This document shows positions 37-4,056 of a stretch of DNA of 64,000 nt, in pieces (the first letter of the stretch is position 1; each line of letters begins with the position of its first letter). The translations under genes were made by a program, and so were the position numbers. Below the pieces are notes generated by a model, which was not told the origin of the DNA, did no database searches, and was given only the letters and a program-made list of their open reading frames with translations. Source of the stretch: Escherichia coli (GTDB lineage: Bacteria; Pseudomonadota; Gammaproteobacteria; Enterobacterales; Enterobacteriaceae); the NCBI RefSeq assembly GCF_022846255.1, contig NZ_AP025682.1. One strand, given 5' to 3'.

Positions 37-3000
37 ATGATGAAACATATATATATAACATCTGATTTCCTTATGACTAGCGGGGAAGAGCAGGATAATA
101 ATATTCGCTGGGTATATGATTTTATCAGTCGACCTATAGAAATAGCGACATCTTACGATGCAAAATGTTTTTCCACTAAAAAGTGGAATGTTTTAAATTT
201 TGACAGAAAACATTTTTTTGCCTTGTCAAATATAGAGTATGTTGAGGATAAGCAATTCTATTACAATGAGAGGGATATAAATTCAGAATCTATAAAATAC
301 ATCAAAAGCATTATAAAAAATGACATTATTCTTGTGGGGTATGAATTATCAGAGCAAACAAGAAAAATTCTCGATAAAATAAAAGTAACATATATTGACA
401 TTTGGTTGCACCCAATAAGATATATGGATGATGTATTATTTGGTTTAAAATCAAACAATGAAGAAATAAATAACAAACTTTACACTTTCAATATACCAAG
501 TGAGACATATTATTTATATGCAGATCGTTTAAAAGTTCAAAGCTATCGAGGTTATAGGAAAAATAAATCTTATTTAAAAGATAATTCTGCATTGTTTGTG
601 GGCCAAACACTAAACGATAAAGCAGTCTTCCATAATGGAAAAATGCTAAATTTACTTGATTTCAAAAATGTTTTTGAAAAAGTAGTTAAGAAATACAATC
701 ATGTTTATTATAGCCGGCATCCATTTGTTAAAGATGGAGATGAAGAAATAATAAACTATTTGAAAAAATTTAAAAACGTCACTCTTAATGATGACCCAAC
801 TTATCATCTCTTGGCGTCCAAAGAAATTGAATATGTTTTTTCCATTTCCTCATCTGTTGTTCATGAAGCAAAATACTTTGGCAAGGATGTGGAATTTTTA
901 TACAAACCAGTTATAACAATCGGAGAGCATAAGAAAGATTATACGTCGGTGATGCACGAAATTTTCTATGGGCATTTTTGGGCTTCAATATTGTCCCCAT
1001 TAATAAATGTTAATAATGTTCCGGTTGTCAGCTATTTTTCAGGAAAAGACAAAACTCGAGATGCCTTATCCTTTTATTGGGGGTATAGGAATATAGATAA
1101 AGTGGAAAGTGTAAAGCAAACAGTTTCGACGCTTTGGAATAAAACTCGAGAAATTAATGCACCAAAGAGCCCGCAGCCAAAAAACAAAAAAAGTAAATCT
1201 GGGGTGTTTGATATAATAAAAGAAAAAAAAGTAATATCTTTTGATATTTTCGATACTCTGATTACCAGGAAGTTTTATTCCCCAAGAGATTTATTTAATC
1301 TGGTTGAAAATGAATACAATAAAAATAATAAGTCAAATTTAAAAGAATTTAAACAATTTCGTATTCTTGCTGAAAACAAAGCATTAGAAAAAGCCATTAA
1401 AAATGGAAAACAAGAATGTACACTTGATGAAATATATAATTGCCTTAAGGAAATTCTTTTTCTAACGGATAAAGAATGTGCTTGCTTAAAAAATATTGAG
1501 ATAGAACAAGAAATAAAAAATATCATTCCTCGAAGAAGGGGAATTGATATATTTGAATATGCAAAAAAATTAGATAAAAAGATAGTATTAACTTCAGATA
1601 TGTACTTGAAATCTGATGTAATAGAAGTAATTTTACAGAAGAATAAAATAACAGGGTACGATAAAATATATCTATCTTCTGAAATAGGATTAAAGAAAAA
1701 AACAGGGGATTTATTTAAGTATGTAATAAATGACAATAGAGTGAATAATAACGAAATATTACATATTGGCGACAATATAGAAGGAGATGTTCGAGTACCA
1801 AGTGGTATGGGGATTAATACCTATCATATACCAAGGGCTATTGATATTGCGAAATTTTATACCCCAGAGATGAAAAGCTGGGTTGATACAGTTTCCTTAA
1901 ACAAAACACCATTACTTGATGCTGTGGTAACAACGATATCAAATCGTTATTACGATGATGAAAGTCAACAGAAATTATCGCCTTACTGTGCTGATAAATT
2001 TAAATTTGGTTATCAAGCCTTTGGTCCTATTATTATTGGATTCACATCATGGATAAAAAAAATAGCCATAGAAAATAACATTAAAAAATTATATTTTCTA
2101 TCTCGAGATACCAAGGTGGCATATGATTGTTTTAATATCCTTTATCCAGATGTAAATATAGAATCACATTATATTTACTCATCACGTCGTTCTGTAAGCA
2201 TTCCATTATTTAAGTCAAAAAAAGATTTATTAGTGGAGGTATATAAAACAATATATTCAACAACTATATCCGCATGGCTAGAAAATCGTTTTGGTATAAC
2301 TAAAGATCAATATTCTGTTGAAACATTACAAAAATATAGTCTAAAAGATTACGATCATCCGATTGGAGGTAAGTTCAGTAAGGAGAAACTTTCACAATTA
2401 GTTTGTGAACTTTCTGATATAATTTTGAAAAATGCCAGACAAGAAAGAATGAACTTAATTGACTATCTTTCTTCCCACGGCATGGATACTAATGAAAATA
2501 TTGCGGTAGTTGATATCGGTTATGCTGCATCAATGCAATCTGCATATCAAAAAATACTTAATAAAGAAAATATTCACGGTATATATTACGCAACATTCAA
2601 TAGTGCGTTGAAAAATATTTCAGATAGTTCTCTCTTGCATGGGTATAGTGTACATCTTGAAAACCCATCATCTCCAAAATATGGAATATGTAGTCATAGA
2701 TTCTTCTATGAAACAATTTTTTGTGATGCAGATAATAGTTTTATTAAACCTATTAAAACTAATAATGGATTTGAAATCGTAAAAAGTAGATTTGATGATT
2801 CCACAAGACAAACCGTTGTAAAAGAAATACATTCTGGTGTTTTAGCTTTGGCACACGATCTCGCAGAAAATTATTCAAGCAGTGTGTTAAATGGATATAT
2901 TGATCCTAGTTTAGGAAGTTTTCTTTTCGATTCATTCTTAAAAACACCGAATAAAAATGATGCGGAAATGTTTAAGGGGGTCTTATTTGAAGATGCAATG

Positions 3001-3390
3001 GGACCGAGCATAAAACGTTATTTATTTGTTCCCGATGAGTTAAAGAACGACAAAAAAGTCATTGATAATATGATCTGGAAAGAAGCGGCAAGTTTATTAT
3101 TAAGTTATTCTTCTGTATCGACCCACTCTACAAAATCAAATAACATTACAATAAATTCAGATGACAATAAAAAAACTAATAATACATTAAGAGCCAACAA
3201 AAATTTAAATGGAAATGGAAATGGAAATGGAAAAATAAATCTAATTTCTATCGAGCGAGCCATATTTAATTTTCTGCTAAATGGAAGAAAATTAAATAAA
3301 TATATTAAGGATAGAGACCTTTTTTTCAAGGACTCACGTAATAGATTTATTTCATTGTATTACAATAAAATAGGGAAAAACTATAAATAA
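37..3390 (+). CDS. Putative multidomain capsule (kps region 2) polysaccharide biosynthesis enzyme: N-terminal KpsS/KpsC-like capsule-synthesis domain, central HAD-like hydrolase domain, C-terminal domain of unknown function
   Basis: 1117-aa ORF with GGAG RBS at 29-32. Very AT-rich compared with the adjacent kps region 1. Residues about 180-300 share motifs with the KpsS and KpsC products in this window (L-x-Q-x-x-ND, HP, S-x-S-S...EAK). HAD motif I-like DIFDTL at about aa 400 and GDNIEGD further on. Position and orientation are those expected for region 2. Confidence 0.6.
3208..3231 (+). repeat. In-frame hexanucleotide tandem repeat (AATGGA)x4 encoding NGNGNGNG near the C-terminus of the region 2 enzyme
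   Basis: Direct reading of the sequence; repeat length is a multiple of 3. Confidence 0.9.
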
Positions 3391-3426
3391 AATTTCTATG
3401 GATGAAATATTTTATTTTACAATAAT

Positions 3427-4056
3427 ATGATGTGGGAAAATATGTGTGATTTCAAAATATCTAATATCAAAAATAATAATGTAAATATATCCACTACAAC
3501 AAACATTGGAGTAAATTGCGAGATATCATTTCCTGACGGATTTTCAGGGCGCGAATCAGTAAATAACACAATAAAAATGGGTGAGCACACAAGATTTAGA
3601 TATTTTAGAATAATAGTTAGAGGATCAAATAATAACATTGTGATTGATGACGGTACTTTTTACACTGGTACTATAATGGTAGAAGGCTCTCATCTTAATA
3701 TAAATATTGGTAAGAACTGCACTATAAATGGACTGTTTATAACATGTAGAGATAAGGATGTTATTATAGGTAATGACTGTCTAATTTCATCAGAAGTAAA
3801 GATAAGAAGTAGTGATAGCCACAAAATCTTTGATCTTAACGATGATGAAAATCAAATAAATAAACCTCATAGCCCTGTAATAATAGGTAATCATGTTTGG
3901 ATTGGTCAGGATGTATACATTGGTAAAAATAGCTTTATTGCGGACGGTTGTATAATTGCAGCGAGAGCTACAATAACCAAGAAAATACATACTAAAAATT
4001 GCATTGTTGCAGAGTTCAATAAAATAATTAAGGAGAATATTGTTTGGAAAAAATAA
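3427..4056 (+). CDS. Hexapeptide-repeat (left-handed beta-helix) acyl/acetyltransferase, putative capsule O-acetyltransferase
   Basis: 209-aa ORF with repeated [LIV]-G-x-x-x-x-I hexapeptide motifs (IGNHVWIGQDVYIGKNSFIADGCII). AT-rich, directly downstream of the region 2 enzyme. Confidence 0.7.
   Translation: MMWENMCDFKISNIKNNNVNISTTTNIGVNCEISFPDGFSGRESVNNTIKMGEHTRFRYFRIIVRGSNNNIVIDDGTFYTGTIMVEGSHLNINIGKNCTINGLFITCRDKDVIIGNDCLISSEVKIRSSDSHKIFDLNDDENQINKPHSPVIIGNHVWIGQDVYIGKNSFIADGCIIAARATITKKIHTKNCIVAEFNKIIKENIVWKK

Follow-up and report, generated by a model that had tools for sequence, protein, structure and literature searches.

A two-gene capsule region 2 of Escherichia coli predicted to encode a KrkA-type ribose–Kdo polymerase and an O-acetyltransferase

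A 64,000-nucleotide stretch of Escherichia coli DNA (assembly GCF_022846255.1, contig NZ_AP025682.1; hereafter the window) carries at its left end region 2, the serotype-specific part of a kps capsule gene cluster. This region very probably encodes a one-protein capsule polymerase of the KrkA type, making a backbone of the K13/K20/K23 type, together with an O-acetyltransferase that modifies it. Sequence identity, domains, catalytic residues, fold, gene context and the boundaries of a mosaic stretch were all observed; the chemistry is carried over from near-identity to the K13 enzyme. An earlier interpretation of the same DNA, made from its letters (the sequence-only reading), had proposed one multidomain capsule polymerase accompanied by an O-acetyltransferase, and it was right in this: the polymerase is recognised here as a KrkA ortholog, and the product of the second open reading frame (ORF2) as a predicted O-acetyltransferase.

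KrkA was named in E. coli K13 strain NCTC9022, where it is a 1113-aa 'HAD family hydrolase' (J Biol Chem 2026; PMC12887879). [quoted passage not shown] The large protein of the window is 93% identical to K13 KrkA (WP_001336789) overall and ~98% identical over aa 1-1020 (1001/1020), with 354/357, 241/243 and 406/420 identical residues in the successive catalytic segments (97-99% each). The 19 core substitutions include three in the GT140 domain (K3R, S169N and E297D) and are densest in aa 601-1020 (14/420). Both proteins contain the three catalytic modules, arranged in identical order, and their genes occupy the same slot between kpsT and an acetyltransferase gene; they differ in an Asn-Gly (NG) microsatellite that is present in the linker of the window protein, and in their diverged tails. 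Judged by its sequence, the large protein is thus an ortholog of K13 KrkA. Comparison with region 2 of typed K antigens, where the sequence-only reading had said its proposal might fail, did return an already characterised polymerase, at 98% identity to the K13 KrkA core and 354/357 to 9yfx. The name given to the gene by RefSeq (Prokaryotic Genome Annotation Pipeline, PGAP) is 'HAD family hydrolase'.

In a phmmer search of PDB sequences, the GT140 domain matched KrkA of 9yfx with an E-value of 2e-236. All 24 of the published CMP-, adduct- and acceptor-binding residues of KrkA are kept, and K3R, S169N and E297D are not among them. In the numbering of PMC12887879, to which 1 is added for the window protein (Asp194 is Asp193 of the paper, and Glu103 is Glu102), the kept residues include the nucleophile Asp193 (QxxxD), the base Glu102 (YE), His227-Pro228, Arg127, Arg170, Asn21, Glu17, Phe345 and Trp347, among others. 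An AlphaFold2 model was built on 47 full-length homologs of 27-93% identity; the catalytic residues of all three KrkA domains are invariant across these homologs, including E103, Q190, D194, H228, P229 and R128 (window numbering) in the GT140 domain. Superposition of the modelled N-domain on 9yfx and 9yfy with Foldseek gave a template modelling (TM) score of 0.99 (normalised to the target) and a root-mean-square deviation of 0.8-0.9 Å. By analogy with the K13 enzyme, the domain would transfer Kdo from CMP-beta-Kdo to O3 of beta-Ribf with retention of configuration.

The sequence-only reading had described this N-terminal part as a KpsS/KpsC-like capsule-synthesis domain. Its kinship with KpsC was upheld by structure, and the marginal alignments with KpsC do bring the QxxxD and HP motifs together; the remainder of the claim was not borne out, since PF05159 (Capsule_synth) gave no Pfam match in the large protein at E <= 10, and BLASTP of the N-domain against the KpsS encoded in the window found nothing (E 0.89). 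BLASTP against the two modules of the window KpsC gave E-values of just 0.047 and 0.59, with VGQTLND placed over VDQTFND, and RHP over VHP/PHP. The module is a structural relative of the retaining Kdo transferases of the KpsC/WbbB type, as the Foldseek match to WbbB (E 1e-5) indicates. It has the same fold as WbbB (GT99) and KpsC (GT107) and appears to share their double-displacement QxxxD and HP motifs, but differs from them in its negligible sequence similarity, its separate CAZy family and its general base (Glu102, paper numbering), which is located on another structural element. It is therefore only in their structures that the KrkA N-domain and KpsC can be firmly related.

The middle module is assigned as a phosphatase of the HAD type. 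Both HAD signatures pointed out by the sequence-only reading were located (FDIFDT, aa 402; GDNIEGD, aa 578), Pfam placed PF00702 at aa 398-586 (E 2e-4), and the NCBIfam HAD-IA model TIGR01549 scored above its cutoff. The region aligns with residues 381-591 of Bcs3, the capsule polymerase of Haemophilus influenzae type b (8a0c, 8a0m; PMC10299916), with FDIFDTLI identical, and D403, S520 (SDMY), K554 and GDNIEGD (578-584) are invariant in the 47 homologs. The ~500 residues that had been called unassigned correspond to a predicted PRPP-dependent ribose-5-phosphate transferase resembling CriT of Bcs3. Here, sequence matches to Bcs3 (E 1e-28) and to the T. composti ribofuranosyltransferase 7shg (E 2e-12) run through aa 599-1025; in the phmmer search of PDB sequences, the E-values for the two were 3.5e-26 and 1e-11. 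Foldseek, beyond the N-domain, retrieved Bcs3 (8a0m/8a0c, E 1e-28) and 7shg (E 7e-22) as well as HAD phosphatases. The FLSRDT motif (D691) aligns with FISRDG of Bcs3, containing the conserved SRD aspartate (Bcs3 D680), and R690, D691, S716, R717, D826, G828 and E892 are invariant in the 47 homologs. Use of PRPP as a donor, followed by 5-dephosphorylation, is suggested by analogy with tail-less K13 KrkA and with Bcs3.

The parallel with multi-enzyme polymerases drawn by the sequence-only reading holds, as the overall design resembles that of Bcs3 (PMC12887879; PMC10299916), likewise a one-protein multi-enzyme polymerase with a CrpP HAD module, a CriT module and C-terminal amphipathic helices. 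In Bcs3, however, the first module is CroT, a TagF-like ribitol-phosphate transferase, an SH3b domain is also present, and the product is a phosphodiester polymer; the first module of the window KrkA is instead a Kdo glycosyltransferase, and its predicted product is devoid of phosphate. The pairing of a HAD domain with a PRPP transferase is also seen in 7shg and in the Klebsiella pneumoniae O7 ribofuranosyltransferase, with matches in both sequence and fold. Whereas 7shg is a stand-alone dual-domain protein of 648 aa, the pair in the window KrkA is fused behind a Kdo transferase, resulting in a complete polymerase. Scans of the large protein with Pfam, NCBIfam and PADLOC returned HAD models only, with no TagF (Glyphos_transf), Stealth or defence-system match, so that profile libraries alone would leave two thirds of the protein without assignment. 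A phmmer search against 1.84 billion representative proteins yielded 2462 matches at E <= 1e-30. All three catalytic domains are covered in about half of the best 150 of these, and the matches also include GT140 proteins of ~360 aa and HAD-CriT proteins of ~700 aa that stand alone, as well as fusions in which the N-terminal domain is a different one; the KrkA-type design is common and modular.

Region 2 contains two ORFs, 37..3390 (+, 1117 aa) and 3427..4056 (+, 209 aa), reproducing exactly the coordinates, strand and lengths noted before. Its AT-richness was likewise borne out, with a GC content of 0.28-0.30 over nt 1-4500 (about 29%) compared to 0.46-0.55 in the adjoining kps region 1 (kpsSCUDEF). 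Translation of krkA probably begins at the second ATG (nt 40), since a GGAG lies 7 nt upstream of it and both the PDB and the kTYPr numbering begin there; the 1117-aa length is that of the product from the first ATG. For ORF2, the start is most likely nt 3442 (Met6 of the longest ORF), giving a product of 204 rather than 209 aa, because 6 of 11 aligned homologs (203-225 aa) begin at this Met column and 4 others begin 1-2 residues earlier. An antisense TTG-initiated ORF of 166 aa inside krkA, 1275..1775 (-), was treated as spurious, most likely an artefact of AT-rich DNA.

The distribution of the locus was investigated by megablast, using window 1-4480 as the query against 5426 complete E. coli genomes. 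Only three genomes (TUM1886, Br_112_kylling and 2013C-4282) matched over the full length, at 99.4-99.8% identity, and 61 further genomes matched nt 1-3098 only; the K13 strain NCTC9022 is among the partial matches to the window. In all three near-identical genomes, kpsM-kpsT lie directly upstream of krkA and kpsT ends 132 nt before the krkA ATG, and region 2 therefore consists of two genes only. The further region 2 genes that the sequence-only reading thought might lie to the left are not present in these genomes, where kpsMT adjoin krkA, and its statement that neu, kfi and kfo genes are lacking holds for the locus. Neither the ORF list nor the TUM1886 annotation contains genes for CDP-ribitol or CDP-glycerol synthesis in region 2. 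Region 1 supplies the poly-Kdo primer, CMP-Kdo and export.

The AlphaFold2 model, with a mean predicted local distance difference test (pLDDT) score of 89, comprises four folded modules and two disordered segments (aa 374-387 and 1026-1065). For residues 600-1117, for which the sequence-only reading had recommended structure prediction, it gives a CriT-like fold and, behind it, a disordered linker leading to a helical tail. The number of (AAATGG)n copies in the linker varies among strains: 4 in the window and TUM1886, 5 in Br_112_kylling and 6 in 2013C-4282. Over its last ~97 residues, the window KrkA is about 43% identical to the K13 protein. This 97-residue tail (aa 1021-1117) contains 18 Lys and Arg against 6 Asp and Glu, its hydrophobic moment peaks at 0.53 (aa 1072-1089), and the motif IER.IF...NKY..R..FF.DS is common to several genera. 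The helical tail is a probable membrane-association module, by analogy with K13 KrkA, where deletion of the corresponding region made the protein soluble (PMC12887879). Covariation of the tail type with the acetyltransferase type, as would accompany a physical partnership, was considered and rejected, since the tails of the ORF2-type loci (Yersinia, metagenome and Logan contig) are 31-38% identical to that of the window and 38-40% identical to that of K13.

Based on these assignments, the window KrkA would extend the poly-Kdo lipid primer, itself the product of KpsS and KpsC, with a backbone of the structure ->3)-beta-D-Ribf-(1->7)-beta-Kdo-(2->. The CriT-like domain (aa ~599-1025) would use PRPP to place ribose-5-phosphate on the terminal Kdo, at its O7, and the HAD domain (aa ~397-598, nucleophile D403) would then strip the 5-phosphate. 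The GT140 domain (aa 2-357) would transfer Kdo from CMP-beta-Kdo to the ribose O3 by double displacement, with Asp194 forming a covalent alpha-Kdo adduct and Glu103 activating the acceptor hydroxyl. Anchoring at the inner membrane would fall to the basic helical tail that follows the disordered linker, and the 204-aa hexapeptide protein would subsequently O-acetylate the polymer from acetyl-CoA, setting the K120 type discussed below apart from K13 and K20; the acetyl transfer, its target and the membrane anchoring are what we infer here. PRPP would come from the housekeeping enzyme Prs, and CMP-Kdo would be provided via KpsF and KpsU. With donors drawn from housekeeping metabolism or region 1, no sugar-nucleotide genes would be needed, so a region 2 of two genes would suffice.

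The hexapeptide acetyltransferase proposed by the sequence-only reading was recovered in ORF2 as PF00132 hexapeptide repeats (Pfam, E 3e-7). In an alignment of 12 homologs, H127 and H151/W153 are invariant, and 29 columns are invariant down to 35% identity. None of the NCBIfam equivalogs compared (WbbJ, LacA, Maa, WcaF, Vat, CatB and NeuD) reached its cutoff with ORF2, the best being WbbJ with 48.5 bits against a cutoff of 243. Six homolog loci were examined, from Yersinia mollaretii, Pseudomonas sp. GL-R-19, one metagenome contig and three read-assembly contigs, and in every one of them an ORF2-type gene is directly downstream of a ~1110-aa KrkA-like gene in an ABC-transporter capsule locus. 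This conserved pairing argues for a function of ORF2 on polymers of the Ribf-Kdo type. In the loci of Pseudomonas sp. GL-R-19 and of Logan SRR5240329, the KrkA-like gene and the acetyltransferase gene are placed after kpsMT and kpsE/D-like genes, and the latter locus has, further downstream, a GT61-family glycosyltransferase gene with KdsA-like and KdsB-like genes. The two loci suggest more complex Kdo/ribose capsules based on the same core gene pair.

ORF2 might instead not acetylate the capsule, being inactive or decaying, transferring another acyl group or acting on another substrate, in which case the capsule would be an unmodified K23-like polymer. We regard this as unlikely. It is favoured by the failure of ORF2 to reach any curated NCBIfam model, by its RefSeq label of 'hypothetical protein', and by the variability of codon 33 (window 3538) among strains: Gly in the window and 2013C-4282, Glu in Br_112_kylling, and a stop (GGA to TGA) in TUM1886 (locus position 12538), one of the three complete genomes that contain the locus. 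On the other hand, the window has an intact ORF2, with the same sequence as the copy in 2013C-4282, the 29 invariant columns include His residues typical of the class, and the position directly after a KrkA-like gene is kept in all six loci from other organisms (two named genera). Moreover, the K13 and K20 loci have an acetyltransferase gene in the same slot. The stop codon looks like a natural on/off variant, by analogy with K13/K23 and K2a/K2ab, and owing to it RefSeq annotates just a 138-aa 'hypothetical protein' in TUM1886. Across the three near-identical genomes, PGAP gives ORF2 as a 'hypothetical protein' of 138, 204 or 209 aa.

For the K type, which the sequence-only reading held could not be named from sequence, the identity tables that supplement the kTYPr publication (PMC13171606) served as the reference, and the locus proved nameable as kTYPr K120, within the K13/K20/K23 family. 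The O25b:H4 locus (NZ_CP015085) compared with the K13 locus gave 95.781% identity for KrkA and 35.802% for the acetyltransferases, matching the published K13_K23 vs K20 values exactly, and this locus is therefore K20. The window KrkA is 91.258% identical to K20 KrkA, and the published value for K20_8 vs K120_8 is 91.25 (PMC13171606). The published K120_7 is a 204-aa hexapeptide protein with a Pfam match at 146-180, and K120_8 has 1118 aa with HAD at 397-598 (PMC13171606); the former equals ORF2 counted from Met6, and, with numbering from the second Met, the length of the latter corresponds to five NG repeats. On the strength of this agreement in gene lengths, domain coordinates and identity to K20 KrkA (91.25%), with no difference detected in these features, the window locus is assigned by its sequence to K120. 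In kTYPr, K120 is an in-silico K type of lineage G2A with Kdo/Ribf, set beside K13_K23 and K20 (PMC13171606).

The K20 locus resembles that of the window in its KrkA ortholog (91% overall), two-gene region 2 and Ribf-Kdo backbone (predicted for the window), but has a tail variant of its own and a 248-aa acetyltransferase of the CatB/XAT type (Rib O5), which is 38% identical to ORF2 over 53 aa. The K13 acetyltransferase, a CatB/VatD-type enzyme acting on Kdo O4, belongs to another subfamily and is just 41% identical to ORF2 over 51 aa; the K13 locus further differs in an IS256 remnant that is absent from the window. In these alignments the likeness of ORF2 to the CatB-type K13 and K20 enzymes is limited to ~50 residues of generic beta-helix. 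With regard to K20, the literature is in conflict, as three conservative substitutions relative to K13 KrkA are reported in PMC12887879 and 95.781% identity is given in the kTYPr tables. In the K20-type locus compared here, KrkA differs from K13 KrkA at 47 of 1114 residues; it may be that different 'K20' sequences underlie the two papers.

Another backbone, such as the Ribf-Ribf-Kdo trisaccharide of K16 or a different Rib-Kdo linkage like that of K19/K97, could conceivably result from the 14 CriT-domain substitutions or from the replacement of the tail. With the same predicted set of domains, K16 has a trisaccharide repeat (PMC13171606), meaning that the repeat is not determined by domain content alone, and it is in aa 601-1020 that the substitutions are commonest. 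Such a backbone is nevertheless quite improbable here. The K16, K19 and K97 enzymes are distant (41-69% identity for other E. coli clusters; PMC12887879), in contrast to the 97-99% per domain found for the window protein, and all of the GT140 acceptor-binding residues are unchanged. In addition, K20 KrkA has 11 of the 14 same CriT-domain substitutions and about as many differences from K13, with the same backbone. Least credible of all is a polymerase with a phosphodiester module in its unassigned part, making a phosphate-containing, teichoic-acid-like capsule (ribosyl-ribitol phosphate as in Hib/K18/K100, or glycerol phosphate as in K2): although Bcs3, with its parallel architecture, does produce a phosphodiester polymer and is matched by the HAD and CriT modules (E 1e-28), the place of the TagF-like CroT is taken by a GT140 Kdo transferase that shares 99% identity with the crystallised enzyme, neither Glyphos_transf nor Stealth domains are found by Pfam, genes for CDP-ribitol or CDP-glycerol synthesis are missing from region 2, the near-identical K13 enzyme makes Ribf-Kdo (PMC12887879), and the Ribf-Kdo repeats of K13, K20 and K23 have been confirmed with MALDI mass spectrometry (PMC13171606), with the absence of phosphate demonstrated for those three. 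The teichoic-acid-like polymer foreseen by the sequence-only reading is thus not expected, because a TagF-like or Stealth domain is lacking and the HAD domain would hydrolyse ribose phosphate; HAD families are the only ones found by Pfam, and a Ribf-Kdo glycan is predicted.

Four points weigh against a K120-type, O-acetylated Ribf-Kdo polymer made by a KrkA ortholog. Of the 19 core substitutions relative to K13 KrkA, 14 fall within the CriT-like domain, whose specificity determinants are poorly mapped. The K120 assignment is derived from gene lengths, domain coordinates and one identity figure, as published for the K120 reference (GCF_013361275, NZ_JABANR010000004.1 7395..21328). K120 is known in silico only, and its polymer chemistry is predicted from near-identity to K13. 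Lastly, ORF2 falls below every matched NCBIfam cutoff, and its acetyl-CoA donor and target hydroxyl are deduced from the family alone.

The K120-specific part of the locus is a mosaic stretch. Compared by blastn with the K13 and K20 loci, the window is covered over nt 1-3098 (97.5% and 96.6%, respectively) and then over 4508-5700 only, with no nucleotide homology to either locus detected between nt 3099 and 4507. The boundary at nt 3098, shared by both comparisons, is more plausibly a recombination breakpoint, situated where the conserved core ends. Since homology resumes 7 codons into kpsS, the junction between region 1 and region 2 lies inside this gene; the KpsS C-terminus varies with K type, with protein lengths of 396 aa (window), 409 aa (K20) and 419 aa (K13). 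A donor of the 1.4-kb stretch was sought and none was identified, the best relative of ORF2 (74% identical) being on a 4.2-kb read-assembly contig with a KrkA just 66% identical. The spacer 4057-4486 (430 nt) has no terminator-like site, notable repeat, Rfam match or tRNA, and promoter-like matches within it were read as the usual noise of AT-rich DNA. The coordinates of the features are collected in Table 1.

Table 1. Features assigned in region 2 and the adjoining part of the window
Feature	Position (nt)	Strand	Evidence
krkA ortholog, sole capsule polymerase of region 2	37..3390	+	ORF list; K13 KrkA identity
GT140 domain (predicted retaining beta-Kdo transferase), aa 2-357; Asp194 nucleophile, Glu103 base, QTLND and HP motifs	40..1107	+	phmmer vs 9yfx; 24 residues; AlphaFold2 superposition
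HAD-type phosphoribosyl-phosphatase domain (predicted), aa 397-598, Bcs3 CrpP equivalent; FDIFDT (D403), SDMY (S520), K554, GDNIEGD (578-584)	1225..1830	+	PF00702; NCBIfam HAD-IA; Bcs3 alignment
PRPP-dependent ribose-5-phosphate transferase domain (predicted), aa 599-1025, Bcs3 CriT equivalent (GAPT in PMC12887879)	1831..3111	+	Sequence and Foldseek matches to Bcs3 and 7shg; invariant residues
K120-specific stretch: KrkA tail, ORF2, 430-nt AT-rich spacer, last 7 kpsS codons	3099..4507	.	blastn vs K13 and K20 loci; in 3/5426 complete E. coli genomes
Disordered linker, aa 1026-1065, with NGNGNGNG run	3112..3231	+	pLDDT < 50; sequence not kept in K13 or K20
In-frame hexanucleotide microsatellite (AAATGG)4 encoding NG repeats in linker	3207..3230	+	Tandem Repeats Finder (TRF)
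C-terminal helical tail, aa 1066-1117, basic, partly amphipathic	3232..3390	+	Predicted helices 1066-1116, pLDDT 75-87
Left-handed beta-helix (hexapeptide) acyltransferase, 204 aa, predicted capsule O-acetyltransferase, kTYPr K120_7	3442..4056	+	Pfam Hexapep; invariant His; synteny
kps region 1: kpsS 4487-5677, kpsC 5712-7739, kpsU 7736-8476, kpsD 8486-10165, kpsE 10186-11334, kpsF 11406-12425	4487..12425	-	ORFs; annotation of 99%-identical TUM1886 locus

Both the polymerase family (January 2026) and the locus type K120 (April 2026) have already been published. For the site at which the conserved acetyltransferase would modify the capsule, the TUM1886 nonsense allele provides a natural null control. 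As a tentative proposal, which may well turn out otherwise, ORF2-type enzymes acetylate neither Kdo O4 (as in K13) nor Rib O5 (as in K20) but some further hydroxyl, so that K120 would be a fourth serologically distinct member of the cross-reactive K13/K20/K23 group; the ORF2 type, and not the CatB type, would be the widespread partner of KrkA across Enterobacterales and Pseudomonas. Apparent natural on/off variants, such as the TUM1886 nonsense allele, exist. The strain is predicted to carry a K13/K20/K23-like Ribf-Kdo capsule. Capsules of this group are associated with urinary and invasive infection, and their use as a vaccine antigen has been considered. The RefSeq names 'HAD family hydrolase' and 'hypothetical protein' could be corrected.

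Beyond kpsF, the window resembles island DNA of other E. coli, with Ag43, CbtA/CbeA, RadC, an antirestriction gene and insertion sequence fragments (similarity was checked over 12400-37000). The match to TUM1886 ends to the right of kpsF at ~nt 13600, where that genome has an SPI-7-type integrative conjugative element with iha. The 64-kb window contains no tRNA genes, and its sole Rfam match at the gathering threshold is to the IS102 RNA family (21296-21532 (-), 70.7 bits). A citrate-lyase/acnB cluster is found further along in the matching genome of isolate F1022.

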